From NCBI GenBank assembly GCA_031255835.1, contig JAIRRT010000192.1, forward strand, positions 1 through 40,716: a stretch of 40,716 nt of DNA, in the 5' to 3' direction. This DNA comes from Bifidobacteriaceae bacterium. Lineage in GTDB: Bacteria; Actinomycetota; Actinomycetes; Actinomycetales; WQXJ01. The notes beneath the pieces were generated by a model. It did not search any database and was not told the DNA's origin. It saw only the letters and a program-made list of their open reading frames with translations. The translations under genes and the position numbers were made by a program. Positions within the stretch are counted from its first letter, which is position 1. Each line of letters begins with the position of its first letter. Positions 1 through 40,716 of the stretch are shown piece by piece.

Positions 1-2430
1 GCTGATCTGCCCGCCGTCCGCTGGCGCCACCCACGATTCCTGCGAAGGCGTCAGCGGGGCTGGGCCAGCGGCCTGGGTTACCGTCACCGACCTGCTCGTG
101 GTGCCGGCCGTCACCGTGAACGTCGCCTTGCGCGTTGCCGACGTCGGGTTGGGGCTGACGCTGAGCACAACATCACGGCCTGTCATGCCTTCCATGTCCG
201 ATGCCGTCAACCATGGTTCAGAGGTTGTAGCCGACCACAGCACCCGGTTTGTGCTCACCGAAAGCGAGACAGACCCGGCGGACGATGGCGCAGACCAGGT
301 GGTCCTTCCCAACGTCACCGTGGCTGTGGTTGCGGCCGCCTGGGTCACCGTGATGGTTCGGGTGACCTGGCCTGCCGAAAGGGTGATTGTGCCGACCCGG
401 CGAGCGCCGGTGTTGCGTTCGGCTACCCACTGGACCTCGTCATCGGACACTCCGCTTGTGGGCGTCATGGTCAACCAGTCCGAATCGCTGACTGCCGACC
501 AGCTTGACTGGTTGGTGGTGATCCGCGGGGTGGTCACCGATCCGGTCGAGACCGGCGCCCAGCTGAGCAGGGACGATGTGATTGTGGCAGCTGCCTGGGA
601 GACGGTCACGTCACGCGAAGCCGTGCCGGCTGGCCCTGTGGCCGTGACGGTGATCTTGCCGGACCGAGCCGCGCCTGGGTTGGGCGCCGCGGTGATCGCG
701 ATGGTCTGGCCGCTCGTGCCCACCGACGGGGTGACGCTCAACCAGCTTTCGCCCGATGCCGCCATCCAGTTCGCCTGGTTGGTGGTCACCGTCGCGCTGG
801 CAGATCCGCCGCCAACTGGCGCCGCCCACGTGATCCGCGACACGGTCACAGTGGGCCTCGGTGCAGCGGTCTGATTGACCGTCACCTGGCGCGTGAGGCT
901 CCCAGTCACTCCGACCACGGACACGGTGATGTGCCCGGTCCTGGCCGCCGCGACGTTGGCTGCCGCCGTGATCTGCATGTCCACACCAGTCCCGCCGCTT
1001 GCGGGGCTAACCGTCAGCCAGCTCGCGTCCGACGTTGCAGTCCAGCTTGCTTGGTTGGTGGTCACCCGCGACGTGGTGGTCGCTCCCCCAACCGCAGCCG
1101 ACCATGTTGTGCGCGACAGCGTGAGGGTTGGGCGTGGAGCTGTTGCCTGGGTAACTGTCAGCGTCCTGGTGGCTGTGCCGCCGGCCGAGACGGTCACCCT
1201 GGCCGTGCGGGTCGAGGATGGGTTGGGCTGTGCCTGAAGTTCAAACGACCCACCAGACGGACCGGACGTTGGTGTGACTGTCAGCCAACCTGCGTCCGAC
1301 GTTGCCGTCCAGTCAGCCTGGTTTGTTGTGACAGTCGCGCTGACCGATCCGCCTGCGCCTGGGGCTGACCATGTTGTCCTGGACACCGACACCGTTGGGG
1401 ACGGGCCCTGGGCGATATTGACCTGGGCTGTTGCAGCGCCTGAGGCGAAGGCGACGATCCCACTGCGCAGGGAGGTGCCTGGGTTGGCGCGTGCCGTCAA
1501 CATGACTGTGGCGCTGCCCGTGCCCGAGTTTGGCGAGGCAGTGACCCAGGCTGGCGTGCTTGTCACGCGCCAGGGCCGCCCGTTGGTGGTCAGGTTGACC
1601 GTGGTGGTCGAAGCCGAACCATATGGCGCCCAGAGTCCTGGCGTGACGCTCAGGGTATCGACCTCGAGTTGGCTGATCGACAACGTGGCGGACAACCCGC
1701 CACCGGTCACGGTGACCGCTCCGGTTCTGTTAGCACCTGTGCCGTTGGCGCTGACCGAGACCCGCACCTGTGTGCGGCCGGCGCTGCCGGCCGCTGGCGT
1801 GACACTGACCCACGCAGGCGCTGATGCGACGGTCCACGGCACGTTGGAGATGACCTCCACCGCTACAGCCTCGCCTTGACTGTCGGCCACGAAGGCCGTC
1901 CTGCTGAGCGACAAGTCGGCTGGCGCCTGGGCCACGGTCACTGTTTGGGTGTAGCCGCTGGCGGTAGTCAGCTCAATCGAACCGGTCCGGGCCTGGCCAT
2001 TGTTGGCTTGCGCACTGACGCTCACCTCTCCGCCAACGCCGCTGGTCGGTGAGACCGTCACCCAGGTGGGCGCAGAGACCAGAGTCCATGTGTTCCCGGC
2101 CAGCAAGCTCACGTGGAAGGTCTCCGAGCCACCTTGCGGTGGCAAGGTGATCGAGGCGGGGATGACCCTCATGGGCGGGCCGCTTTGCAGCACCGTGAGT
2201 GTGGCCGTCGCGTTTCCAGAACCAAACACCACCAAGCCGTCCCGTACTTGGTCATCGTTTTGCGTGACCGCAATCTGCACCGGTCCGCTCAGACCGGATG
2301 CTGGCGTGACGGTGATCCAATCTGGCGCAGAGACCAATGACCAGCTGCCATCAGTGCTGACGTTGACGGACAGTTGCTGTGCTGAATAGTCCGCCGTCCA
2401 CAGGGACCGTGACAATGCCAGTGTCTGCTC
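1..2430 (-). repeat. Coding tandem array of BACON/Ig-like domains of about 85-95 aa inside the protease gene. There are 9 complete copies and 1 partial copy here, plus one more upstream of the PPC-like domain at about 2790-3030.
   Basis: A recurring pattern is seen in the translated minus frame. Examples: TVSVSRTTWSAPGAGGSVSATVTTNQADWTATSDAGWLTVTPTSGPSGGSFELQAQPNPSSTRTARVTVS, TLTLSRTTWSAAVGGATTTSRVTTNQASWTATSDASWLTVSPASGGTGVDMQITAAANVAAARTGHITVS, and TVTVSRITWAAPVGGGSASATVTTNQANWMAASGESWLSVTPSVGTSGQTIAITAAPNPGAARSGKITVT. Assignment to the BACON family is from memory of the motif, not from an HMM search. Confidence 0.6.
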
Positions 2431-4608
2431 CCGCGTGACAGTTATTGTGTATGGCAGTTGCGTGGTGTTGTTCGCACTTTGCGAGAAGTGGCTAATCGCG
2501 ATGTAGTAGGTCTGACCGGCAGAAAGGGTGCGACGGATTTCGAACTGCCGGCCGCCTGCACTGTCGTCATCGAAGGTGATGGTGTTTCCCAGTGAGTCAT
2601 ACAGGGTTCCAAAAACGTCACCCGACGCGGCAGAAGTGAATGTCCATGCAGTCGAGTTCGGAGGAGTGAAGCGCCACCAGTCGACATCGTCGCCTCGCCC
2701 AAGCACACCGTCTACTCGTCCAGAACTGCCGTTGAACGCGAACTCGCAGGTGGTGTTTGGCGTGTCCAAACAGTCATCCAAGTACGCCTCCTGGTTGACC
2801 ACGATGGTCGCGGTCTCCGAGCCAGAGGTCACCGTGACGTGGCCCGTCCTGGAGCCACCCGGATAGGCCTGCGCTGTGATGCTCATCACGCGGCTGTCCG
2901 TGCCAACCTGGCTGGCCACAAGCCACGGGCTAGTGGACGTGATGCTCCACGGCGCACCGCCACTGTCCACAAAGACACGCCTTGTGGCGCCATATTCGGG
3001 CACATCCCAGAAGTCCTGGGAAAGGTTTAGGCCGAAGCGAGTGGATGCCATATCGACTCGCACCGTGGCAGATTCTTCAGCTATCTCCTCCACAGTGATC
3101 CGTAGCGCGCCAGTCTTGGAGAAGAACGTCTCACCCTCGTGGAAGAACATGTTCCCTGATTGGCTGTAATTGGCCGGGAACAGAACCACCATGTTGGGGT
3201 CATTCCTGTCCTGGTATGGCACATGGCGACTGATGGCGACTGACCGGCTCTCCACTGTGTCGTAGTAGTCAACCCAGTAGGTCACCGATCCGCCGTACGA
3301 ATTGTCGATGATCCTAAGCGCCTGCGGATCGTCTCGATCCGGCGTGCGGGCGGGGGTCAGAGTGTATCTGGCACCGTTTCTTGGACCCATCACAGTTGTG
3401 TAGCCGGAGCCGTCCTCGATGACGCCCTCCATGTACTTCTGTTCGCCCATGATCGAGTGCTCCATCCTGATGGTGGAGGAGCCCATGATGTTGTAGATGT
3501 TGCCGTAGTTGGAGACCGAACAGGCATCCGTTCCCGTTTTTTCTCCGTCCATATGGCCGGCTGGGCACTGCATGCTGCCTGAGTGAGCCAGACCGAAGTT
3601 GTGGCCCATCTCGTGCACAAACGTGGACAGCGGATAGGTAGGTGCTCCGGTGTCGGCGTTCGCGCCGACGATGGCGTGCAAGGAGCCGGGTGAGGCGAAG
3701 TTGGTCAGCAAGTAGCCGACTCCGGCGTATCCCGTATAGCAGGATCCTGTGTTCTCATCGCTGGGGGACAGGATCACAAGGTGTCGCTGTGCAGAGTTAT
3801 AGGTCCAGTTGTAGGCCTGTTGCCCATCCGCCCTGATCGCGTCGGTGGCTTCAGACTGGATTGTGGCCAAGGCTCCGGTGCAGTGGGCTTCGCTCTGAAC
3901 TGCCACGACGTCGTTCCAGTTGTAGCTGAACCCGGAGACCGCGCCGCGCGATTCTGTGCCCCACCACTGTGAGATGCCGTTGACGTATGCGTCGAGCTGG
4001 TTCTTGGACCAGAACACTCCTCGCCCGTCCTTCGACATAAACACGAAGTGCAGCGTGTGCTGATACGGGCCAGGCAAGTCGGCCATGGCATCGGCCGGCG
4101 ATTCGAGCACTGTGGCATCTTGCACACTGACCGGCTCATCGGAGTCGGCTAGGGCATCCAGCAGCACGGAGGCAACTTCCTCGGACTCGTCCAGGGGTGC
4201 GTCATCGGACACCTCAACTGCTGGGGCCTGGTCGATGTCCGCCAGGGCCTCGGGGGGCAACTCAGCGATCAGATCGCCCGGCACCTCCACAACGGCCTGG
4301 ATGATGTCGCCAGATGCGACTGAGGCATCGACGCTGTCAGATTCGACGTCGATGAACTGCTCGGAGCCGAACATGATCACGGCTTCGGAACTGTCGGGGA
4401 CAACAAGGAACTGGCCGGTCAAGGCGACATCTACGCCATCGGCCACCAGGTCATCCACAATGCCAGCTGCTGGTGGCGCGGCGGATTGCGCGGCCAACGC
4501 CGGCAGCCCGCCAATTCCGAGGGCGAGCGCCGCGGCGGCCATGATCGAGGGGATACGGAAAGCTTTCGACGCACCAAAACGCGTCAGGGAGCCAGGGACA
4601 TTCTTCAT
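1..4608 (-). CDS. Secreted multidomain zinc metalloprotease (metzincin HExxHxxGxxH) with a PPC-like domain and at least 10 BACON/Ig-like repeats. The C-terminus runs off the left window edge.
   Basis: The ORF is absent from the supplied track because it has no stop codon in the window. My manual reverse-complement translation from ATG 4608-4606 stays open in one frame down to position 1 (1536 codons). I checked for in-frame TTA/CTA/TCA over 1-100, 841-900, 1201-1280, 1861-1980, 2341-2460 and 2860-3330 and found none. The N-terminus MKNVPGSLTRFGASKAFRIPSIMAAAALALGIGGLPALAAQS looks like a Sec signal peptide. The zinc motif HEMGHNFGLAH lies at 3583-3615. A PPC-like segment DDVDWWRFTPPNSTAWTFTS...AGQTYYIAISHF lies at about 2480-2700. 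It is followed by repeats of the pattern W.A.SD..WLTVTP.SG. Confidence 0.8.
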   Translation of the reverse strand, partial: MKNVPGSLTRFGASKAFRIPSIMAAAALALGIGGLPALAAQSAAPPAAGIVDDLVADGVDVALTGQFLVVPDSSEAVIMFGSEQFIDVESDSVDASVASGDIIQAVVEVPGDLIAELPPEALADIDQAPAVEVSDDAPLDESEEVASVLLDALADSDEPVSVQDATVLESPADAMADLPGPYQHTLHFVFMSKDGRGVFWSKNQLDAYVNGISQWWGTESRGAVSGFSYNWNDVVAVQSEAHCTGALATIQSEATDAIRADGQQAYNWTYNSAQRHLVILSPSDENTGSCYTGYAGVGYLLTNFASPGSLHAIVGANADTGAPTYPLSTFVHEMGHNFGLAHSGSMQCPAGHMDGEKTGTDACSVSNYGNIYNIMGSSTIRMEHSIMGEQKYMEGVIEDGSGYTTVMGPRNGARYTLTPARTPDRDDPQALRIIDNSYGGSVTYWVDYYDTVESRSVAISRHVPYQDRNDPNMVVLFPANYSQSGNMFFHEGETFFSKTGALRITVEEIAEESATVRVDMASTRFGLNLSQDFWDVPEYGATRRVFVDSGGAPWSITSTSPWLVASQVGTDSRVMSITAQAYPGGSRTGHVTVTSGSETATIVVNQEAYLDDCLDTPNTTCEFAFNGSSGRVDGVLGRGDDVDWWRFTPPNSTAWTFTSAASGDVFGTLYDSLGNTITFDDDSAGGRQFEIRRTLSAGQTYYIAISHFSQSANNTTQLPYTITVTREQTLALSRSLWTADYSAQQLSVNVSTDGSWSLVSAPDWITVTPASGLSGPVQIAVTQNDDQVRDGLVVFGSGNATATLTVLQSGPPMRVIPASITLPPQGGSETFHVSLLAGNTWTLVSAPTWVTVSPTSGVGGEVSVSAQANNGQARTGSIELTTASGYTQTVTVAQAPADLSLSRTAFVADSQGEAVAVEVISNVPWTVASAPAWVSVTPAAGSAGRTQVRVSVSANGTGANRTGAVTVTGGGLSATLSISQLEVDTLSVTPGLWAPYGSASTTTVNLTTNGRPWRVTSTPAWVTASPNSGTGSATVMLTARANPGTSLRSGIVAFASGAATAQVNIAQGPSPTVSVSRTTWSAPGAGGSVSATVTTNQADWTATSDAGWLTVTPTSGPSGGSFELQAQPNPSSTRTARVTVSAGGTATRTLTVTQATAPRPTLTLSRTTWSAAVGGATTTSRVTTNQASWTATSDASWLTVSPASGGTGVDMQITAAANVAAARTGHITVSVVGVTGSLTRQVTVNQTAAPRPTVTVSRITWAAPVGGGSASATVTTNQANWMAASGESWLSVTPSVGTSGQTIAITAAPNPGAARSGKITVTATGPAGTASRDVTVSQAAATITSSLLSWAPVSTGSVTTPRITTNQSSWSAVSDSDWLTMTPTSGVSDDEVQWVAERNTGARRVGTITLSAGQVTRTITVTQAAATTATVTLGRTTWSAPSSAGSVSLSVSTNRVLWSATTSEPWLTASDMEGMTGRDVVLSVSPNPTSATRKATFTVTAGTTSRSVTVTQAAGPAPLTPSQESWVAPADGGQIS

Positions 4609-4901: not shown

Positions 4902-6377
4902 CTAGATTAGGAGGAGTTCGTATAGGGGGGTTTGGTAGTAGCGATTTATTACGTAGACCAGGGAGATTACTAGCCATGCGACTGGCATGATTCGGACCAG
5001 GCGCATGTACCAGCGGCGGGTCATTTTGGCCAGGGCAGGCATGACGGGGAGTAGAAGCGGGAGGACTGGCAGGAAGTATCTGCCCTGCAGACCCCAGATG
5101 GTTGGCGCGCCGGGCTCGGAGCCGACAATGTACATACCCAGCGCGGTCACCCAAACGAATCCGACCGCCACCACCAGCAGGAACACTCGGGTGCGGCGGG
5201 GCAATACTGACAGCCGGCCGTGGTAGCACAGCAGGTAGGCGGCGGCGCAGATCAGGATCGGCACGGCCACACCCAGCGGCAAGGGAGTGTCCATGGCACC
5301 GAAGTTTCCGGCAAAGGAGATTATGTTGTCGTTGCCGCGCAGAGAGATGAATTCCCTGGTCATCAGCAAGAACGCCATCGCCGGGTGGTGAAGCAGGTAG
5401 GAGAACTGGAAGCTCGAATCGCGGCTGACGCCATCGTCGTAGCCGGCGGACAGGCCCTGGCTCGCCACATACAGCCAGCCCAAAGCACACATTCCGGCGA
5501 ACAGAATGATGCCGGCCTTGGCCGCCCAGCCGAAGCGCCTCAGCAGCCGGCCTGCCGGAACCACCAGCAGCGCACCCACGCACACAACCACGCCCGGTTT
5601 GGTCAGCGCCACCGCCCCGGCCAGGCCAGCCAGCCCGGCCACCTTGAGCCAACCGATTGGGCCACGCTCGGCGGTGCGGCGCAGATACAAGGCGAGGCTG
5701 ATGAACAGGGCGGACAGCCCAATCGACATGGCGTCCCCGCCCAGTACCGCTGATTGGGCCACCGCCATCGGCAACAACAGCAGCGCCGCCAGCCCCCACT
5801 GCTTGTCTCGCCACAGCCAAACCGCCAACACGCCCAGTGCCGTGCGGACTAGCAGGGTCAGCAGGCGGGCCAGCATGAAGATCCCACCTGGGCTCATATT
5901 GACGGTTTCCCCGACGATGACGGCCACCGCCTGGGGCAGGTGCGCTATCGGGGAATAACTCGAGGTGAGCGCCGTATTCACGACTTCCGTATCGTGCTTG
6001 TTCAGGGGGGTGTTGAACACCAAGTCTGCCGTTTGGGACAAGGAGGTCCTGACCGTCGGGTCCCAGTGGATCACCTTCCCCTCGGCATTCTTCTCACCCG
6101 TTTCCACCAGGCTCTTTGGGATCTCCACGACTGCTTGGCCATCGACCTTTTGAGAGATGAAGTGCCCATGGGCAACCTCGTAGGCGCGGTACATGTGGAC
6201 CGGCTCGTCCGGGGCGGCATTGATGGGCACGCAGACCGCGAACACCGTGCCGAACAGCAACGACACCGCGGCGTAGAACCAACACGGCCGGTTCCAGATC
6301 CGCCAGAACAGCCGTGTGGGCCGGGATGCGTGAGCTGGGGGCGCGGGGGGGTTGGTTGAGGCGGTTGGGGCGGTCAT
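4902..6377 (-). CDS. DUF2142-like polytopic membrane protein (predicted GT-C-like glycosyltransferase or polymer-modifying enzyme)
   Basis: The track ORF is 4902..6461 (GTG start). I prefer the internal ATG at 6377 (MTAPTASTNPP...), which is preceded by GGAGG. The sequence contains many hydrophobic helices. After the first TM helix the motif APDEPVHMYRAYEVAHGHF resembles the PDExxHxxRAY signature I associate with DUF2142. It is the last gene of the minus-strand sugar operon. Confidence 0.6.
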   Translation of the reverse strand: MTAPTASTNPPAPPAHASRPTRLFWRIWNRPCWFYAAVSLLFGTVFAVCVPINAAPDEPVHMYRAYEVAHGHFISQKVDGQAVVEIPKSLVETGEKNAEGKVIHWDPTVRTSLSQTADLVFNTPLNKHDTEVVNTALTSSYSPIAHLPQAVAVIVGETVNMSPGGIFMLARLLTLLVRTALGVLAVWLWRDKQWGLAALLLLPMAVAQSAVLGGDAMSIGLSALFISLALYLRRTAERGPIGWLKVAGLAGLAGAVALTKPGVVVCVGALLVVPAGRLLRRFGWAAKAGIILFAGMCALGWLYVASQGLSAGYDDGVSRDSSFQFSYLLHHPAMAFLLMTREFISLRGNDNIISFAGNFGAMDTPLPLGVAVPILICAAAYLLCYHGRLSVLPRRTRVFLLVVAVGFVWVTALGMYIVGSEPGAPTIWGLQGRYFLPVLPLLLPVMPALAKMTRRWYMRLVRIMPVAWLVISLVYVINRYYQTPLYELLLI

Positions 6378-14227: not shown

Positions 14228-15411
14228 ACCGCACCGATATTGCTGTGGTGGGGGCCGGCATCGTCGGCTTGGCAGTGGCGGAGGCTTTGTCCCGTCAAGG
14301 TCGCCATGTGACAGTACTGGAGAAGGAACCGACGATGGCGGCCCACCAGACTGGCCGCAATTCTGGGGTTATCCATTCGGGCATCTATTACGCCCCGGGC
14401 AGCTTGAAGGCGCGGTTGTGCCGGGCGGGGGCGGCGTCGATGGCGCGGTTCGCTGAGGAGCACGGTGTTGCTCGCGGACCGAGCGGCAAGGTGATTGTGG
14501 CGACGCGGCCGAGCGAACTGCCTGCTCTGAGGGCGCTGGCGGCCCGGGCCGGGGCCAACGGGATCGAGGCGCATCAGGTGACGCGCGCACAGGTGGCCGA
14601 ACTTGAGCCGCATGTTGGCGCCATCGCCGGCCTGCATTTGCCCGGCACGGGGACCATCGATTACTCCCAGGTTTGCCAGGCGTTGGGCGCGCTGGTGGTC
14701 AGCCAGGGCGGCGAGGTGCTGCTGGGGCAGCGGCTGGTGGCGGCGCGGACGGTGGGCGAGACGGTCGAGATCAGCCTGGCGGACGGCTCGCGGCTCGCGG
14801 CGAATGGCCTGATCAACTGCGGTGGGCTGCATTCGGATGAGATCTGCTCGGCCTGCGGCGTGGACCCAGGCGTCCGGATTGTGCCGTTCCGGGGCGAGTA
14901 CTACGAGCTGGCGCCTGACAGGCGGGACCTGGTGCGCAGCCTGGTCTATCCGGTGCCTGACCCGCGGTTCCCCTTCCTCGGGGTGCATCTGACGCGCATG
15001 GTTGACGGGTCGGTTCACGCCGGGCCGAATGCTGTGCTGGCGCTGGCGCGGGAGGGGTACACCTGGCGCGATATCCAGCTGGACGATCTAGCCGGCACGC
15101 TGACATGGCCCGGATTCTGGCGCCTGGCCGCGCGCTATGCACCCGCCGGCGCCAAGGAGATGGCCCGCTCCGCATCGATGCGCCTGTTCGCCGCGTCCCT
15201 GGTCCGCTTGGTGCCGGAGATCGAGCCCAGCGACCTCCGCCCAGCCCCCGCCGGAATCCGCGCCCAAGCCCTAACCGCCACCGGCGCCCTAGTAGACGAC
15301 TTCCTAATCCGCCGAGCCCCCCGCCAAATCCACGTCCTAAACGCCCCCTCCCCAGCAGCCACAGCCGCCCTAGAAATAGCCCACCACCTATCAACCCAAT
15401 CCCCCACCTAA
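14224..15411 (+). CDS. lhgO: FAD-dependent L-2-hydroxyglutarate oxidase/dehydrogenase (LhgO/YgaF family)
   Basis: The ORF is 395 aa. Its GTG start overlaps the GT4 stop (GTGA). It carries the FAD motif DIAVVGAGIVGLAVAEAL, then HQTGRNSGVIHSGIYYAPGSLKA, FRGEYYEL and FLGVHLTRMVDGSVHAGPNAV, which match the LhgO family as I recall it. The gene symbol is given at family level only. Confidence 0.75.
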   Translation: MNRTDIAVVGAGIVGLAVAEALSRQGRHVTVLEKEPTMAAHQTGRNSGVIHSGIYYAPGSLKARLCRAGAASMARFAEEHGVARGPSGKVIVATRPSELPALRALAARAGANGIEAHQVTRAQVAELEPHVGAIAGLHLPGTGTIDYSQVCQALGALVVSQGGEVLLGQRLVAARTVGETVEISLADGSRLAANGLINCGGLHSDEICSACGVDPGVRIVPFRGEYYELAPDRRDLVRSLVYPVPDPRFPFLGVHLTRMVDGSVHAGPNAVLALAREGYTWRDIQLDDLAGTLTWPGFWRLAARYAPAGAKEMARSASMRLFAASLVRLVPEIEPSDLRPAPAGIRAQALTATGALVDDFLIRRAPRQIHVLNAPSPAATAALEIAHHLSTQSPT

Positions 15412-15547
15412 CCCCACCACCCGCGCCGCTCGCGCCGGCAGCGCCGGCACCCGCCCCCAACGGGCCACCGCCGCAACTGCTCAAAACACCACCTCACCTC
15501 CGGTTTCCCGTCCCGTTGTGAGCACTTTCGGTTGTCGCTGTCACCCG

Positions 15548-15823
15548 TCCGCCGATGGCGTTCAGACGTTGGGGGTGTTCGCCCTGTAGCGCGTGCGTTG
15601 GGTAGGGGTTCGATGCCGCTGGCGGCATGCCTTTTGGAGCCGGTCACCGAATTCTTCTGGGGATGATGCGTGTGGTCCAGGGTTTCGTGATGTCGGTGGG
15701 TTTGGTGGTGGTCCGGTTCCCAGACGTCGCGTGGTTCGGATCCCGGACCTGGGTGCGGACAAGGAGGTGTGCGGGCGTGCCTCCTCCAACCTCACCATCC
15801 AGTGTGTGGACGGCCTGATCGGA
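15548..15823. repeat. Head module of a modular intergenic repeat element (left copy), homologous to 39766-40211
   Basis: Blocks of nucleotide identity are shared with the right-hand copy. The shared blocks are gccgatg.cg.tca.acgttggg, gtaggggttcgatgccgctggcggcatgcctttt, ggtcaccg, tctggggatgatgcgtgtggtc...ttcgtgatgtcggtgggtttggtggtggtccggttcccagacgtcg.gtggttcggatcc, and acctcacc immediately before the tandem array. Confidence 0.8.
15613..15635 (+). terminator. Possible intrinsic-terminator-like hairpin inside the head module
   Basis: The inverted repeat is ATGCCGC-tg-GCGGCAT (15613-15628), followed by gcc and TTTT (15632-15635). The sequence is identical in the right-hand copy (39828-39850). 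The stem is short and the U-tract is only 4 nt long, so this call is weak. Confidence 0.3.
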
Positions 15824-16130
15824 GGTGCTTAACTGACCAATTGAGCCGCCTGGCTCGCCAATTGGTCACTTAAGCACATCCACCTCGACGGGCCTGAGCA
15901 CAAGCGGGCAGGTGAACGGCCTGGTCGGAGGTGCTTAACTGACCAATTGAGCCGCCTGGCTCGCCAATTGGTCACTTAAGCACATCCACCCCGACGGGGC
16001 TGAGCACAAGCGGGCAGGCGAACGGCCCGGTGGGGAGTGCTTAACTGACCAATTGAGCCGCCTCCCACGCCAATTGGTCACTTAAGCACATCCACCTCGA
16101 TGGGGCTGAGCACGGCAGGGCACGCAGGAA
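15824..16130. repeat. Tandem array of 3 units of 106 bp, each containing an imperfect palindrome of about 53 nt (left locus)
   Basis: The landmark gcttaa recurs at 15827, 15933 and 16039, giving a period of exactly 106 bp. In unit 1 the left arm GTGCTTAACTGACCAATTG is at 15825-15843, the loop agccgcctggctcgc is at 15844-15858, and the right arm CAATTGGTCACTTAAGCAC is at 15859-15877. The third unit degenerates after about 16115. Confidence 0.9.
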
Positions 16131-16428
16131 GACTGAGCGAACTTGGGAACTGCTGGACCAGAGGCAGCATCCCCAGACAATCCAAGGTGACCATCTCTGT
16201 CGGTCTTGCCGCCAGGAGCACTGACCCACTACGCACCGACGGCGTTACCCAACGGAGCACCCAGGTTTGGACGGCATCGGCGACCGGAAGTGCTCAGCCC
16301 TGGGCTCGGGGTGGGGGGTTCTACTTGGGGGCGGGCGTGAGGTGGGGGGTTGTGGGGGGGAAGGGGGATAGGGTGGCTTGCGGGGCGGCTTTGGGTGCCG
16401 CTAGGGGACTAGGACAGGAGCACTCCAC

Positions 16429-31258: not shown

Positions 31259-33073
31259 ATGCCGCCAGCCGCCCCGCGTATGAGGGGTGGAGTGTGGCTT
31301 GGTCTCCTGGTGGCTGTGGCGGTGATTGCCAGTGCCGGTGGGTTGCTGGCTGGGCGGCTGATCGTTTCGCCGCGTGAGATGGCGGCTTTGTCCGAGCCGC
31401 CGGAGGCTACGTTGATCACCGTCGAGGTGGTGCGGCAAAGGATCAGCGACACGATCATCACTCGCGGTGAGGTGGCGCCTGCCGCCCAGGTCAGTCTGGG
31501 TTATGGCGAACTTGTCAAACCGGCCGAGCCTGGTGGGTTCGATGCCGGAATTGGTGGCGGTGTTGGAGGCGAAGGTGGTGGCGGCGCTGGGGTGCTGACC
31601 GGCGCATCTGCCCATGTGGGTGACGAGGTGGACGAGGGCGAGACGATTGTCGAGGTGGACAACAGGCCCGTGTTTCTGCTGGCAGGCGTTCGGCCCGCAG
31701 TGCGGGACCTGAAGCCGGGGGATTCTGGGCCAGATGTGGCTCAACTTCAAGAGGCGTTGGGGCGGCTGGGGCTGTACAGCGGGCCGGTCACTGCGGTGTT
31801 CGATTCGGCGACCGATGCGGCGGTAGCACGTATGTACGAACGTGCCGGCTACGCGCCGCCCACAACGGACGGTGGGTCCGGTGAGGATGCTGAGGCTTTG
31901 AGTGGTGCTGAGCTGGCGGTGTCCAGTGCGCGCCAGGCGGTTGAATCAGCATTGGACGGGGTGGATACGGCTCGTGCTGCGGTCAAGACGGCCAAGGCTG
32001 GTCTGGCTGAGGCGCAGGCTGGCCTGCGGCAGGCTCGCCGGGAGCGGGCGGATCTGCGAGCGGCCCGCCGCACGGCCGAGGATGCCAAACGAGCAGCGGA
32101 GAACACGGCGCGAGCCCAATGGGCCGCTGGGGGTGCGGGGACTGGCGGCGGGTCCGGTGGTGACGCGGCCGGCGGAGGTACCGGGGGAGACGGAAGTGGT
32201 GCGGGTGGCGGTGCTGGCTCGGGTTCAGGTGGCGCTGCGGTGACGTTGGAGCAGGCCATCGCGGCAGCGGTTGGTGCGGTGGACCCCGGGCCCACAGATT
32301 CCCAGTTGGCAGCCGCCACCGACGCCATCGCCTCAGCCAAGCGATCAGTTCAGGCCGCCGATGACGGCATAGACGCAGCCCAGGCTGGTGTCACCACTGC
32401 AAAGAAGGCAGTCGCAGCGGCACGGGCAGGCGAGGCCGCCGCTGTTCAGTCTCTTGCACGGCTGACCGCCAGCAAAGGCACCGTTTTGCCGCGAGTGGAG
32501 ATCTCCTTTGTGCCGGTCCTGCCCGCGTTCGTCACCTCAATGGCAACAGACGTGGGCTACGCGATCCCTCAGATCCTGGCCACATTGACACCCAGCGCCT
32601 TGATGGTGCGTGTCACCGGCCTGTCCGAGGGAGAGGCCGCCATGCTCGAGCCGGGCGGGCCCGCCGAGCTGACCATGCCCGATGGGACGGTCCGTTCTGG
32701 CACTGTCGGCGAACTCTCCAGTCAGGCTGAGACAGGAGAAGGTGGGATCTCTATGGGGGCGCCGGGCGCCATCGTCGATGTGATTCCGGATGAGGAACTG
32801 GACTTCGCGCTGTCTGGGGTCAACTTGAAGGTGACGTTTGTGGCTGCCCAGACGGCCACGGAGGTGCTTGGGGTGCCGCTGGGGGCAATCAGCTCCAACC
32901 CGGCCGGGGACCTGAGCGTGATTGTGGCTGGTGAGCCGCCCGCGCCTGGGGTCGATCCGCCGCTGGAGCGGGTGGCTGTGGTGACGGGGGTGAGTGGCGA
33001 GGGGCTGGTCGAGGTCACCCCGGTGGAGCCGGGCACGCTGGACGCCGGTATGCGGGTGGTGATCGGCGGATGA
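31259..33073 (+). CDS. Membrane-anchored peptidoglycan-binding / HlyD-like periplasmic adaptor partner of the downstream ABC exporter
   Basis: The ORF is 604 aa with an N-terminal TM helix (GVWLGLLVAVAVIASAGGLLAG). A PG_binding_1-like segment is present: DSGPDVAQLQEALGRLGLYSGPVTAVFDSATDAAVARMYERAGY. It also has an Ala-rich coiled-coil region interrupted by a Gly-rich insert, and a beta-rich C-terminus. Its stop overlaps the ABC ATPase start (ATGA at 33070-33073). Confidence 0.7.
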   Translation: MPPAAPRMRGGVWLGLLVAVAVIASAGGLLAGRLIVSPREMAALSEPPEATLITVEVVRQRISDTIITRGEVAPAAQVSLGYGELVKPAEPGGFDAGIGGGVGGEGGGGAGVLTGASAHVGDEVDEGETIVEVDNRPVFLLAGVRPAVRDLKPGDSGPDVAQLQEALGRLGLYSGPVTAVFDSATDAAVARMYERAGYAPPTTDGGSGEDAEALSGAELAVSSARQAVESALDGVDTARAAVKTAKAGLAEAQAGLRQARRERADLRAARRTAEDAKRAAENTARAQWAAGGAGTGGGSGGDAAGGGTGGDGSGAGGGAGSGSGGAAVTLEQAIAAAVGAVDPGPTDSQLAAATDAIASAKRSVQAADDGIDAAQAGVTTAKKAVAAARAGEAAAVQSLARLTASKGTVLPRVEISFVPVLPAFVTSMATDVGYAIPQILATLTPSALMVRVTGLSEGEAAMLEPGGPAELTMPDGTVRSGTVGELSSQAETGEGGISMGAPGAIVDVIPDEELDFALSGVNLKVTFVAAQTATEVLGVPLGAISSNPAGDLSVIVAGEPPAPGVDPPLERVAVVTGVSGEGLVEVTPVEPGTLDAGMRVVIGG

Positions 33074-33801
33074 CACAAACGTTCGAGCAGGCGCCGCCTG
33101 GGGCGGTGATCGAGCTGGATGGGATCGAACGCACATACCCTGGCCCACCGCCCGTGCCGGCATTGGCGGCGACTCGTCTGACCATCGCGGCGGGGGACTA
33201 CGTGGCGGTGGTTGGGCCGTCCGGTTCGGGAAAGTCGACCCTGCTGAACGTCATCGGACTGCTCGATGTGCCAACTGCGGGACGCTATGTGCTCGATGGC
33301 TATGACACCGGGGCGCTCAACCCTTCGGAGCGGGCGGCGCTGCGGGGGACCAGGATCGGTTTTGTGTTCCAGTCCTTCCATCTGATGGCTCACCGCACGG
33401 TGTTGGAGAACGTCGCACTTGCTGGTACATATGTACGGTTGCCGCGGCGCCGGAGGTTGGCGCAGGCGGCCGAGGCGATTGAGCGCGTCGGGTTGGGGCA
33501 TCGCTCCCAGTTTCTGCCTTCCCAGCTTTCTGGCGGCGAGCGGCAGCGGGTCGCCATTGCGCGGGCGATTGCCGGACGGCCCAAAGTGCTGCTGTGCGAC
33601 GAGCCAACCGGAAACCTCGACACCCACCGCGCGGGGGAGATAGTCGCGCTGTTTGAGCAGATGCACACCGACGGCATGACGGTGGTTGTGGTGACCCACG
33701 ATGAATCGCTGGCCGGCCGTGCCGCGCGCCAACTGCACGTGCGCGATGGCGTTGTGACAGATGCCGCGGCGAGCCGGCCCGCGTGGGCGGGAGGGGTTTG
33801 A
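33070..33801 (+). CDS. ABC transporter ATP-binding protein (MacB/LolD-type)
   Basis: The ORF is 243 aa. Walker A is GPSGSGKST, the Q-loop is FVFQSF, the signature motif is LSGGERQRVAIARA, Walker B is LLCDEPTGNLD, and the H-loop is VVVTHD. Confidence 0.92.
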   Translation: MTQTFEQAPPGAVIELDGIERTYPGPPPVPALAATRLTIAAGDYVAVVGPSGSGKSTLLNVIGLLDVPTAGRYVLDGYDTGALNPSERAALRGTRIGFVFQSFHLMAHRTVLENVALAGTYVRLPRRRRLAQAAEAIERVGLGHRSQFLPSQLSGGERQRVAIARAIAGRPKVLLCDEPTGNLDTHRAGEIVALFEQMHTDGMTVVVVTHDESLAGRAARQLHVRDGVVTDAAASRPAWAGGV

Positions 33802-35323: not shown

Positions 35324-38300
35324 ATGAAACCGATTACCGCAACACGCACTGCCTTGGCGGCGGCCGCCGCCATGGCGCTGGTCCTGTCGGGCGGAGCCCC
35401 GGCCATGGGCTGGTCCACCACGACAGACATCGAAGAGATGGAGGCGAGGCACATCGCCATCGCCGAGGAGGCCGCGGCCGAGTCGATTGTCTTGCTAGAG
35501 AACTACGGCAACGTCCTGCCACTTGCCCCCGGCGGCAACATCGCCATTTTCGGCCCAGGCGCCGTGCGCAACTACCCAACTGGGACCGGTTCCTCGGCGA
35601 TGACGGGCATCCGGTACACCGGCGCGCTTGGCATGTCAACCATTGAGGGCGCCCTGGCGGATGCCGGCTTCACTAATACGGCATCAGCCGCATACAACAC
35701 TGCTCGCAACTCCAGGTTGAGCGCCATTCCGGCGATGGGCTACTGGGGCTTGCACACATTCAATCCGCCATCGAACTACTCAAACGCTGACGCAGTGATG
35801 ACAGATCAGAACGGTCTGGCCGAGCCCACGGCTCCGACAGACACAGCGGTCTACGTCCTGCTGCGCAACTCAGGTGAGACCTATGACAGGGTTCTCGCCC
35901 AGAGCTACTACCTCACCCAGGCAGAGAAAGACAACATTGCACTGCTCGGCCAGACCTACAAGAACGTTGTTGTGGTTCTGTACGTGCCAGGTGTGACGGA
36001 TACCGACTTCTTCCGCGAGATCAACGCCGATCAGTCCATCCGCGATCCCGAAGGCGGCCTGCCGCTCGATGCCCTGGTCAACGCCGGCATCCCCGGCCAA
36101 GAGGGCGCTGAGGCGATTGTCGATGTCCTCACCGGCCAGGTCACGCCCTCTGGCAAGACTGCCGATACTTGGGCCGCGGATTATTCGCTGTACCCAGCAG
36201 CTCCTACCTGGGCAAATAACGATGGCGATGCCTATGACGAGGTTTACACCGAGGGCATCTACGTTGGTTACCGTTACTTCGATTCCTTCTACAAGCAGAT
36301 CGAGATAGTTCCAGGCGATCCGGATGCCTCTGTCAGCTATCCGTTCGGCTTTGGTCTTTCATACACCAGCTTCGACATCGACACGCTTTCAGTTGTTGGC
36401 GATCCTGATCAGGTAACAGTCAGTGCTCGCGTTACAAACACTGGCGCAACCTATTCGGGTAAAGAGGTTGTCCAGGTTTACGCCTCGGCACCGCAGACTG
36501 GTCTGGACAAGCCCTACCAGGAGCTGGTCGGATACGCCAAGACCGGCACACTCGCTCCAGGCCAATCCGAGGTTGTCACCATCTCGTTCGACACTGACAA
36601 CCTGTCCTCCTATGACCCGGCACTGGCTGCCTACACCCTCGAGGCCGGGGAATACCCGATCCGTGTTGGCAACTCCTCCCGTTCCACTGAGGTGGCGGCC
36701 GTGCTGACAGTGGCGCAGAACGTCATCGTGCAGCAGCTGGCCAACCAGCTCGACAACGGCGTTGTTCCGAACGAACTTGAGTCGGATCCAGCTGACTTCT
36801 TCACCTATCCAGGTGAGGCGGCCGAGATTGCTGCTGCGCCGCGTATGCCGCTGAACATGGTCGGCTTCACTGCGCCGAACAATGCCTCGCCGACGGCTGT
36901 GAAGACCGTTGCGATCAGCCCCACTCACCCGATGGCGATCTCTCAGGGCACCATGATTGCTCCGGTCTCGACCTACCTGACCCTGGCCGATCTGATGGAT
37001 TGGCGTGGCACCGGAGGCAGCTATCCTGCGCTTCCGGGCGAGCGGATTTCGCTGGTCGATCCTGCGCCTCCCAGCGCGACGCTGTTCGATGTCGCCAAGG
37101 GCCAGGTCAGCCTTGAGTCGTTTGTTGCCTCGATGAGCGTTGAGGAACTCGCTGCTGCGGCCGTTGCCGGCCAGGCGAGTGGCGCGACCACCCCATATGC
37201 CCGTGGAGCAGCTGGCTACCTGCGGCACAACGAGGCAAAGGGCATCCCTGTGATGGCCTTCAATGACGGCCCGAGCGGTCTGAACGGTTCGACTTCGTTC
37301 AACCTCAACGGCACCAAGTATCAGCGGGTTGTCGCGTACCCCTCAGGCACCAACATTGCCCAGATGTGGAACGTCGATCTGGCTGAGGCAGTCGGCCGGG
37401 CCATCGGTGAAGAGATGGAAGATATGGGCGCAATGACCTGGCTGGCTCCAGGCGCCAACATCCACCGCGACCCGCTGTGCGGCCGCAACGTCGAGTACTA
37501 CTCGGAGGATCCGCTGCTGTCCGGCATGTCCGGCGCTGCGACCACCATCGGCCTGCAGTCCGTCCCCGGCGTCGGGGTGTCCGTCAAGCACTTCGCTGCC
37601 AACAACCAGGAGGCCGAGCGCGAGGGGAATGACAACCAAATCTCCGAGCGCGCGCTGCGTGAGATCTACCTGCGCAGCTTCGAGATCATCGTGCGTGGCG
37701 CACAGCCGATGTCGATCATGAGCTCCTACAACATGATCAACGGCACCTACACCGCGGCCGATTATGAACTGCTGACCGACGTCCTGCGCAACGAGTGGGG
37801 CTTCGACGGCTTCGTCATGACTGACTGGGGCGGCAACCGCGCCGGCGTTATCAACACCATGTATGGCGGCAACAACGTCCAATCGCCTGGCGGCAACGGC
37901 CCGCTCAATGCGATCATCGGCGGCGTTGCTCCGGCGGATCCGCTCTGGCAGGCCAACGGCCTTCCGCAGGTGCGTCAGACTGAGTCCTACGGTGCCGCCC
38001 CGGCGTACAACTGCTTCTGGTTGGCGCTGGGCGACATCGTCCCGATGGCAGGCGGACCGCTGGTCGAATCCCACCAGGTCAACGGGACAATCGCCGCGGC
38101 CACCACCAACACTCTGAACAACTGGGTCGCCGCCGCAGAGCGTGCCGATCAGTTCTCCGGAGTGCCGGCTGGATCAATCCAACTGGTGCAGGAAAACGGC
38201 TACTACACCGTCAACATCTACGGATTCAAGGGCCACTCCATCAGGCTCGGCGACGTCCAGAAGAACGTCATCGAGGTCCTGAAGGTTGCGATGCGGTCGC

Positions 38301-39652: not shown

Positions 39653-39756
39653 CTCACCCAGGGGCGCCCCCAGGCCCACCCGGCCCAGGGGGCGCCCCTG
39701 CAAAACTCACCACCCAAGGCGCCCCCCAGGCCACCCGGCCCAGGGGGCGCCCCCGC
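39653..39756. repeat. Direct repeat (2 copies, about 53 bp) built from GGGGCGCCCC palindromes, immediately after the GH3 stop
   Basis: The landmark ctcac recurs at 39653 and 39706. The sequence GGGGCGCCCC or a near-variant occurs four times (about 39661, 39689, 39718 and 39743). Confidence 0.8.
39660..39699 (+). terminator. Strong GC hairpin downstream of the GH3 gene (terminator-like, no U-tract)
   Basis: The left arm AGGGGCGCCCCCAGG (39660-39674) pairs with the right arm CCAGGGGGCGCCCCT (39685-39699) at 14 of 15 positions, with a 10-nt loop. It starts 8 nt after the stop codon. A second, similar hairpin lies in the next repeat copy. Confidence 0.45.
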
Positions 39757-39765
39757 ACCCCCACC

Positions 39766-40211
39766 CACGCCGATGACGCTCAACGTTGGGTGCTCGGGTT
39801 GTGGTGCGGAGGTTGCGTAGGGGTTCGATGCCGCTGGCGGCATGCCTTTTGAAGGCGGTCACCGGAGTATCTGGGGATGATGGGTGTGGTCAGGGGTTTC
39901 GTGGTGTCGGTGGGTTTGGTGGTGGCCGGGCTATGCGACGTTCTTGCGCACCTGCCGCCTAGGGTCACCGGTTGCCGCCATCGTCGCGGTGGTTGGTTCA
40001 GTGGTGTTGGCGGCAAGACTGATCGAGGTGGTCACCGATGTCTTCTGGGGATGATGCGTGTGGTCAGGGGGTTCGTGATGTCGGTGGGTTTGGTGGTGGT
40101 CCGGTTCCCAGACGTCGAGTGGTTCGGATCCGATACGTGGCCGCGGACAGGCAGGTGTGTCGAGTGTGTCTCCCCCCACCTCACCCCTCAGCCGTGGTTG
40201 GCCTGGTGAGG
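39766..40211. repeat. Head module of the modular intergenic repeat element (right copy), with an internal duplication of about 173 bp
   Basis: It shares the same conserved blocks as 15548-15823. The block ggtcaccg...tctggggatgatg.gtgtggtc...tcggtgggtttggtggtgg occurs twice, with GGTCACC at 39857 and 40030 (spacing 173 bp). An extra GGTCACC lies at 39963. The hairpin plus TTTT at 39828-39850 is identical to 15613-15635. Confidence 0.8.
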
Positions 40212-40716
40212 GGTGCTTAACTGACCAATTGAGCCGCCTTGGTCGCCAATTGGTCACTTAAGCACATCCACCTCGACCGGCCTGAGCACAAAAGGGTGTG
40301 TGGACGGCCCGGTCAGAGGTGCTTAACTGACCAATTGAGCCGCCTGGCTCGTCAATTGGTCACTTAAGCACATCCACCTCGACGGGCCTGAGCACGACAG
40401 GGTGTGTGGGTGGCCTGGTCAGGGGTGCTTAACTGACCAGTTGAGCCGCCTTGGTCGCCAATTGGTCACTTAAGCACATCCACCCCGACCGGCCTGAGCA
40501 CGACAGGGTGTGCGGATGGCCCGGTCAGAGGTGCTTAACTGACCAATTGAGCCGCCTGGCTCGCCAATTGGTCACTTAAGCACATCCACCCCGACGGGCC
40601 TGAGCACGACAGGGGGTGTGGACGGCCTGGTCGGAGGTGCTTAACTGACCAATTGAGCCGTCTGGCTCGCCAATTGGTCACTTAAGCACATCCACCCCGA
40701 CGGGGTTGAGCACGAC
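40212..40716. repeat. Tandem array of at least 4.8 units of 106 bp, each with the imperfect palindrome of about 53 nt (right locus). The array is truncated by the window end.
   Basis: The landmark gcttaa recurs at 40215, 40321, 40427, 40533 and 40639, giving a period of exactly 106 bp. The units are about 85-95 percent identical to each other and to the left-locus units by eye. The window ends inside unit 5. Confidence 0.9.

Follow-up and report, generated by a model that had tools for sequence, protein, structure and literature searches.

A putative BOX/BIME-like composite repeat family with a modular head in uncultured termite-gut Bifidobacteriaceae

The DNA analysed here, 40,716 nucleotides (nt) of contig JAIRRT010000192.1 from a Bifidobacteriaceae bacterium (assembly GCA_031255835.1) and hereafter called the window, is ordinary chromosome with an overall GC content of 65%, carrying metH, proC, PAC2, genes for a class-I cysteinyl-tRNA-synthetase-like protein and a low-molecular-weight phosphatase, and cell-envelope sugar genes. 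The best relatives of its ProC are found in metagenome-assembled genomes (MAGs) of termite-gut Bifidobacteriaceae, at 56-58% amino-acid identity. The window holds two copies of a repeat element in which a head is followed by a tandem array of 106-bp units, and it is this head and the element around it that we describe. As the sequence-only reading of this DNA had stated, the heads are collinear and stand in the same orientation before both arrays, with 84% identity between 15550-15716 and 39768-39929 and again between 15607-16120 and 39995-40508. For comparison we used a public termite-gut metagenome run (X1) that carries the window's own strain, the contigs of which differ from the window flanks at 0-7 positions across 4.5 kb at a depth of ~10; a Joint Genome Institute (JGI) metagenome contig (L085), located through a spuriously called open reading frame (ORF; protein P0002) that was recovered with the 110-amino-acid (aa) ORF of the right head; and a contig (L086) of the GTDB MAG "Bifidobacteriaceae bacterium Ct408_bin70". 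Copy estimates in X1 are the summed k-mer depths of short Logan contigs matching the element at 80% likeness or more.

The left element is complete (15454-16298), with the layout head-(unit)n-tail and long imperfect terminal inverted repeats, and it is non-coding, at least 845 bp long and of 60-64% GC. It starts at about 15454, upstream of the point from which it had been read before, with an extra hairpin (H0) included. Its parts are given below, where the 34-mer is the segment GTAGGGGTTCGATGCCGCTGGCGGCATGCCTTTT.

15454-15540, + strand: H0, a hairpin 5' of the left head, with arms CCGCCGCAACTGCTCAAAAC and GTTGTGAGCACTTTCGGTTGTCG and a loop of ~27 nt
15519-15680, + strand: left terminal inverted repeat (~145-160 nt), which is the 5' module of the head and contains the 34-mer, GGTCACCG and TCTGGGGATGATG
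15602-15635, + strand: 34-mer, which exceeds every other part of the head in conservation and abundance
15656-15745, + strand: G/T-rich block (TCTGGGGATGATGCGTGTGGTC ... GGTGGGTTTGGTGGTGGTCCGGTTCCCAGACGTCG.GTGGTTCGGATCC), conserved in the left, right, L085 and L086 copies and bearing the spurious ORF 15627-15818
15681-15805, + strand: head-internal segment from the left inverted repeat to the first unit, alignable among copies, more variable and with 1-nt indels
15806-16123, + strand: left array of three 106-bp units, from Tandem Repeats Finder and arm matches
16124-16152, + strand: short tail-internal segment from the last unit to the right inverted repeat, between the array end and the start of inverted homology
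16153-16298, - strand: right terminal inverted repeat (tail), with GGTGACC at 16186, CATCCCCAGA and a degenerate GTAG-hairpin

The tail (16153-16298) is an inverted and diverged copy of the 5' module of the head (15537-15680), collinear with it apart from small gaps and matching at 105 of 138 positions (76%), and the outermost inverted match joins TGAGCACTTTCGG... at 15519 to ...CCGGAAGTGCTCA ending at 16296. The whole left element folds head against tail with a z-score of -8.95. Transversions make up 19 of the 33 mismatches between head and tail, and G.U-compatible mismatches number eight on the + strand and six on the - strand; as the mismatches mostly break pairs and show no strand bias, the arms look like diverged inverted copies of DNA and not like a helix selected in RNA. 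A selected RNA structure of head and tail was rejected on this mismatch spectrum. The 3' part of the head was also tried as a degenerate unit, and its local alignment to an array unit scored no better than shuffles.

H0 is a small repeat module in its own right; its 3' arm is shared with the left inverted repeat, of which it forms the outer end. The fold of H0 is no more stable than that of shuffled sequence (z -0.3). At the start of H0 the X1 depth rises from 0 to 92-200 (15454). One X1 contig (depth 5.8) joins 15418 to 15522 via TCTTGG and represents a variant without 15419-15521, which suggests that H0 is gained and lost independently of the head. Outside the element, a C-rich tract on its 5' side (15401-15424) is complementary (75-77%) to a G-rich tract on its 3' side (16327-16358), placing the left element within a larger potential stem; the G-rich tract alone was also matched in two further runs (X2 and X3) and may be low-complexity sequence.

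The right element has a longer head and is cut by the end of the window.

39748-39856, + strand: 5' part of the right head with the intact 34-mer (39817-39850); homology to L085 begins at 39748, and there is no H0 in front
39857-40029, + strand: 173-bp segment specific to long heads, made up of the first G/T block, unique sequence that contains GGTCACCG at 39963, and a second 34-mer region in degenerate form, with GGTCACCG at both borders
40030-40193, + strand: second module of the right head and head-internal segment, matching the whole part of the short (left) head that follows GGTCACCG
40194-40716, + strand: right array with 4.9 or more 106-bp units, running into the window end

The GGTCACC and G/T-rich blocks reported earlier as common to both heads were recovered, with GGTCACCG at 15642, 39857 and 40030 (the copy at 39963 being the third in the right head) and TCTGGGGATGATG.GTGTGGTC at 15656, 39870 and 40044. 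The distance from GGTCACC to GGTCACC in the right head (39857 to 40030) is 173 bp, the direct repeat 39870-39941 versus 40044-40115 has a spacing of 174 bp at 86% identity, and a further, degenerate 34-mer region also falls within the duplicated segment (39822-39929 versus 39995-40104, 82%). The internal duplication that had been ascribed to the right copy is thus real but not private to it, as L085 carries the same long head, collinear with the right copy at 87% across 787 nt. Because the two modules inside one long head are only ~82% alike, the duplication predates the divergence of the copies and has been propagated to different loci; it is an inherited long-head subtype that has been copied between loci. 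The part of the long head specific to the insert has a depth of 27-60 in X1, equal to ~3-6 copy-equivalents, and the short form occurs there with the joint 39856>40030, at which 8 letters (GGTCACCG) fit both sides. The first module of the long head (alpha) has the intact 34-mer and the second (beta) the degenerate one, and beta is nearer to the inverted tail than alpha is (77% versus 69%). Short heads (left and L086) combine the alpha hairpin with a beta-type continuation past GGTCACCG, a makeup that is the expected product of a deletion or duplication between two modules bounded by GGTCACCG.

The 34-mer occurs exactly twice in the window (15602 and 39817) where none is expected by chance, in agreement with the identical segment noticed before, and it can be divided into GTAG-GGGTTCG-ATGCCG-CTGG-CGGCAT-GCCTTTT. 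It is identical at 33-34 of 34 positions in four heads, the rest of the head being 77-85% identical. Its earlier description as a hairpin followed by TTTT is right in layout, with a 6-bp stem and 4-nt loop followed by GCC and TTTT, but the fold is no better than that of shuffled sequence (z +0.3), and the segment, which is without a proper T tract, was not called in a simple terminator scan. With G.U pairs the stem reaches into the AG of GTAG, and GTAG itself is retained in the inverted tail copy and not in the second head module. That the 34-mer is near-invariant yet unremarkable in its fold points to sequence-specific recognition rather than stability.

Both arrays have a period of 106 bp by Tandem Repeats Finder (15806-16113, 2.9 copies; 40200-40716, 4.9 copies, the window end being reached). 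The proposed organization, in which one internal module is repeated a variable number of times after a head, holds across loci, with three units after the left head, at least 4.9 after the right head and 3.2 after the head in L085. Each unit folds into a long hairpin of ~35 bp with arms GTGCTTAACTGACCAATTG and CAATTGGTCACTTAAGCAC, and 16 unit-arm matches were found in the window against 0 expected. The arms are invariant in 11 units from three loci, every unit having the same C.C mismatch at arm position 9, and within the X1 family no variant of them reaches 15%. The unit folds with a z-score of -4.5 on the + strand and -3.8 on the - strand, and the consensus stem including G.U pairs has 34 pairs on the + strand versus 28 on the - strand (-38.0 versus -37.1 kcal/mol). 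Variation lies in the apical loop, of which three subtypes are common to different loci, and in the spacer between hairpins; whole units, the stretch between hairpins included, are 88-96% identical. The right array has a higher-order periodicity of 212 bp, being 95-96% identical at a two-unit shift versus 90-91% at a one-unit shift, which is a signature of in-register tandem duplication. A CRISPR-like array was considered and rejected, the units being without unique spacers and the window without cas genes.

Depth in X1 was used to gauge the dispersal of the element. Parts of the head reach 50-500 times the flank depth, and 332 distinct X1 contigs fall on the 391-nt head. The summed depth is 190-740 for H0 and the head start, ~5000-5300 for the 34-mer versus ~10 at flanking genes, 1400-3200 for GGTCACCG with the G/T block, ~570 for the 3' part of the head, up to ~24000 for the unit arms and 400-860 for the tail core. 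Depth is back at baseline at 15454 and at 16296-16310 (9.6 at the latter), unique contigs stop at 15447, and one X1 contig matches through 16297 and then passes into ~1 kb of different sequence. This sharp drop at the element ends together with the high internal depth marks a dispersed repeat with defined ends. The depth of the 34-mer suggests hundreds of copies, to which other organisms of the metagenome could contribute.

Copies at other loci have the same order of parts. The element in L085 lies 3' of a gene for a 620-aa protein and consists of a long head and 3.2 units, after which it is truncated and directly abutted by two H0 hairpins, while the element in L086 has two copies of H0 and a short head 86% identical to the left one, with the sequence stopping inside the head, which we infer to be the end of the MAG contig. 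At least two species-level genomes carry the family. The genes that precede the four copies all differ, encoding a flavin adenine dinucleotide (FAD) oxidoreductase, a GH3 protein, the unknown 620-aa protein and a second GH3 protein (32% identical to the first), and all four are intergenic, downstream of the gene and in the same direction as it, so that the question raised earlier of whether elements always sit downstream of genes in one orientation is answered affirmatively for the known copies. H0-type hairpins (GACCGCCGTAACTGCYCAAAAC, ~30-nt loop, TTTGAGCAGTTRCGGTCG) are paired near elements, at 3705-3785 and 3838-3915 of L085 and at ~345-415 and 215-285 (minus strand) of L086; they look like a second, very small repeat family with an arm motif common to the outer ends of the big element. 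The surroundings of the L085 element also hold a 14-bp ACAGTCGCCCCCGC in three copies, a 21-bp unit in 2.5 copies and a duplicated GCTGAGCGGCAAGAGCGCCCCG motif (2881-2925, 3899-3950 and 2465-2570), and at 2830-2885 half an H0 is joined to a further, incomplete copy of the head start; the intergenic regions of L085 are patchworks of several repeat modules.

Beyond the copies in L085 and L086, head and unit arms were found in no other GTDB representative genome or JGI contig. Exact scans with a 27-mer and a 19-mer of the unit arms gave nothing in GTDB representative genomes and only chance single matches in unrelated AT-rich DNA in JGI metagenomes, and the element was present in no viral contig, plasmid or phage searched (72,556 plasmids and 50,697 phages). 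A gapped palindrome pattern returned 28 single hairpins in diverse phyla, which were judged to be unrelated chance palindromes. A plasmid centromere or iteron array was rejected on the chromosomal housekeeping context and the many loci, and a type III toxin-antitoxin repeat array on the hundreds of copies and the lack of a toxin gene.

The architecture was compared with known systems, of which the BOX element of Streptococcus pneumoniae is the nearest in layout: in this composite intergenic repeat boxA and boxC bracket boxB arrays, and BOX-type repeats also occur in S. suis (PMC3049150). The parallel with BOX drawn in the sequence-only reading became firmer with the left-copy tail, an inverted and diverged head 5' module. 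Both systems have a 5' module, variable tandem internal modules and a 3' module in many copies per genome; in both the two end modules, in part each other's reverse complement, pair with one another, and the internal module folds by itself (here in one complete element), and spurious ORFs can arise in large elements. The BOX variants of S. suis can have end modules exceeding 100 nt and include additional module types. The present family differs in its host, a high-GC actinobacterium and not a streptococcus, and in modules two to five times larger (head 280-450 bp versus 59 bp, unit 106 bp versus 45 bp, tail ~175 bp versus 50 bp), with inverted ends of ~145 nt and a head in one- and two-module forms. 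We therefore claim the architecture class of BOX and not membership of the streptococcal family, no Rfam family having matched.

Repetitive extragenic palindromic (REP) sequences and the bacterial interspersed mosaic elements (BIME, here BIME-2) and REPINs built from them (PMC2817692, PMC3733652, PMC3116915) are likewise high-copy extragenic palindromes mosaicked with other motifs. Clusters of BIME repeat hairpins at regular spacing, G.T pairs favour one strand, the 34-mer starts with the REP tag GTAG and has a 6-bp stem and 4-nt loop, and, like a REPIN, the element has a GTAG-hairpin in either inverted end, the two being oppositely oriented. GTAG marks the REP elements that RAYT transposases cut (PMC3733652); these REPs are palindromes of 20-40 nt with a stem of 6-13 bp, a short loop and an unpaired GTAG at one end, present in more than 100 copies per genome and associated with IS200/IS605-like RAYT proteins, and Actinobacteria are absent from the listed phyla with GTAG REPs (PMC3733652). 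However, GTAG lies 7 nt from the perfect stem here versus 0-2 nt in REPs, the 106-bp units all run in one direction where REPs alternate, the arms of the unit hairpin (19-23 nt) are not themselves REP-sized palindromes, and no RAYT was found among the window genes. The GTAG of the 34-mer is thus a lead and not a classification, as the 7-nt spacing misfits the described REP families. We consider it unlikely that the family is a REP/REPIN-like system in Actinomycetota, in which a GTAG-hairpin in each inverted end would be acted on by a tyrosine (RAYT-type) or other single-strand DNA transposase, the 106-bp unit would be a payload expanded to thousands and the C.C-mismatched arms would form a protein-recognition array. 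If all of the ~24000x unit depth belonged to the 10x strain, the units would take up a share on the order of 10% in a symbiont genome of roughly 2 Mb.

MITEs, or miniature inverted-repeat transposable elements, including those carrying tandem repeats (PMC3879986), share with the element a non-coding nature, terminal inverted repeats around a core, high copy number and sharp ends, and their core may be a short tandem array of variable length. In contrast to them, no target-site duplication was seen, the element is not AT-rich (60-64% GC, the genome being at 65%), its inverted repeats are diverged and, at ~145 nt, of unusual length, and the element's length is at least 845 bp versus under ~300-500 bp. 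As it is neither AT-rich nor small, we call it MITE-like rather than a typical MITE. Mycobacterial interspersed repetitive units (MIRUs) are intergenic actinobacterial tandem units of 46-101 bp, variable in number, in one orientation relative to the flanking genes and with short ORFs coupled to the neighbouring genes. Head or tail modules are not known from MIRUs, nor is a long hairpin in each unit, and the family described here also differs from them in a unit length that is not a multiple of three and in array ORFs of 48 aa at most. In its larger modules, GC-rich makeup, uniformly directed units and host phylum it stands apart from the BOX, BIME/REPIN and MITE sequence families, and it is probably a new sequence family.

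The head might instead be a gene or a regulatory leader. Its ORFs of 63 aa in the left copy (15627-15818) and 110 aa in the right copy (39877-40209) could be read as a small hydrophobic protein (MMRVVQGFVMSVGLVVVRFPDV...), of which the right copy would be a 110-aa version with an in-frame duplication of 58 codons, and the 174-bp spacing of the direct repeat is divisible by three; but the ORF in L085 is split by a 1-nt deletion into pieces of 58 and 68 aa, 1-nt indels also separate the 3' parts of the left and right ORFs, the nucleotide changes between the left copy and module 2 of L085 are mostly non-synonymous (10 versus 2 synonymous, read from the alignment), and X1 variant sites at codon positions 1/2/3 number 4/4/3, without third-position bias. 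No convincing ribosome-binding-site spacing is visible, the head ORF has no homologue in 5.8 billion proteins except another element copy, and a search with a minus-strand 78-aa ORF gave no match. The head is not coding, and we regard a protein product as highly improbable. A head carrying a promoter or processing signal, with the array transcribed into hairpin RNAs, would agree with the strong folding of the units and with the fixed order and orientation of head and array wherever both are seen. This proposal of the sequence-only reading was not supported, as a sigma-70-like site was found in neither head in a scan whose reach does not extend to atypical actinobacterial promoters. Rfam gave nothing at gathering score and, at E<1, only generic hairpin and miRNA-precursor noise, and with no plasmid or phage match either, no known small RNA or insertion-sequence end was recognised in the head. 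The lack of unique spacers and of any sign of RNA-helix selection in the head/tail mismatches also speaks against a leader, and the mirror tail, sharp ends and tens to hundreds of copies suit a repeat element better than an RNA gene, so that we hold a leader to be quite unlikely.

A function for the host is the more serious alternative, in which the 34-mer and unit hairpins serve as a 3' stabiliser, attenuator or terminator of the upstream transcript or as sites for a nucleoid or topology protein, in the manner of REP and BIME sequences. The position of all four copies just 3' of a gene in its own direction, the high stability of the unit hairpins (z -4.5), the constancy of the unit arms in X1 and of the 34-mer, and the consensus stem that is longer on the + strand are in line with such a role, and effects of this kind have been reported for BIMEs and BOX elements (PMC3049150, PMC2817692). 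At three loci, however, the upstream gene has its own GC-rich hairpin ahead of the element, the 34-mer hairpin is thermodynamically ordinary and without a proper T tract, and the energy difference between strands is negligible. We see host function as possible but clearly the less likely account, and it is compatible with a mobile origin.

We therefore favour, at a probability of roughly 70%, the reading of the head as the left end module in a family of composite interspersed repeats that are non-coding and carried by a clade of uncultured termite-gut Bifidobacteriaceae, a BOX/BIME-like composite that resembles MITEs and of which mobility is only inferred. Such an element would spread, or would once have spread, as a non-autonomous MITE-style element, with a protein encoded elsewhere recognising the inverted-repeat modules. 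As recognition site the near-invariant 34-mer is the foremost candidate, and a second possible site for protein recognition is the unit arms, which are near-invariant and have a fixed C.C mismatch. Array length would change by in-register tandem duplication, unequal recombination or slippage, and the 212-bp higher order of the right array fits growth and shrinkage by tandem duplication or unequal recombination, while long and short heads may interconvert through duplication or deletion between the modules bounded by GGTCACCG. On read-through from the upstream gene the hairpins would probably affect transcript stability or termination, as a side effect and not as a designed leader function.

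Several points weigh against this reading of the element. No direct repeat flanks 15454/16298 or 15519/16296 as a target-site duplication, no transposase is encoded in the 40.7-kb window, and we know of no cognate transposase or matching insertion sequence. The complete element with a tail is a single case (the left copy), and its inverted repeats share only 76% identity. The number of copies in absolute terms is uncertain, as family members in other organisms of the metagenome could inflate the X1 depth, and extrapolation from the window (two elements in 40.7 kb) gives ~5-fold fewer copies than that depth. That the unit arms and the 34-mer are so strongly conserved could also stem from host function and not from mobility.

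Other features of the window and its relatives were noted alongside. Two nearly identical GC-rich hairpins without a T tract (GGCGCCCC.AGGCC.ACCCGGCCCAGGGGGCGCC) lie 55 bp apart at 39659-39700 and 39718-39757, directly 3' of the GH3 stop codon and 5' of the right head, and may be the GH3 gene's own terminator in duplicate; unique X1 contigs break in this hairpin region at 39703. In the two closest MAGs, Cd354_bin28 (L005, 1-115) and Pcl387_bin9 (L006, 1-222), proC lies 115-222 nt from a contig end, and a repeat could be the cause of the assembly break upstream of it, although no element sequence was seen in the visible flank of proC in either. X1 contigs skip 284-291 nt at 33240-33535 (ORF 33070-33801) and 97-276 nt at 37516-37793 (GH3 gene), both coding, and the local depth climbs to 70-257 at these skips, which are either variable internal repeats or conserved domains common to other organisms of the sample. 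Self-BLAST also revealed diverged direct repeats among unannotated ORFs at 493-1398 of the window (728-855 versus 1271-1398, 72%; 647-842 versus 923-1118, 65%), which may be a repeated protein segment, and the two largest ORFs of this region have no Pfam match.

Composite repeats of head, array and tail are well described only in streptococci (BOX) and enterobacteria (BIME), and a literature search turned up no account of one from Bifidobacteriaceae or any other Actinomycetota; a 2025 description of termite-associated Bifidobacteriaceae makes no mention of such repeats (PMC11707648). Window and X1 contigs alike break off at or within an element, and since the family breaks short-read assemblies, MAGs of these termite symbionts are likely to under-report it. 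The repeat may be a sizeable hidden fraction of the genome in these symbionts. The near-invariant 34-mer and the unit arms offer specific probes for strain typing and a possible bait for the recognising protein. The larger significance, if true, would be a very large copy number and a REP/RAYT-like mechanism in Actinomycetota.

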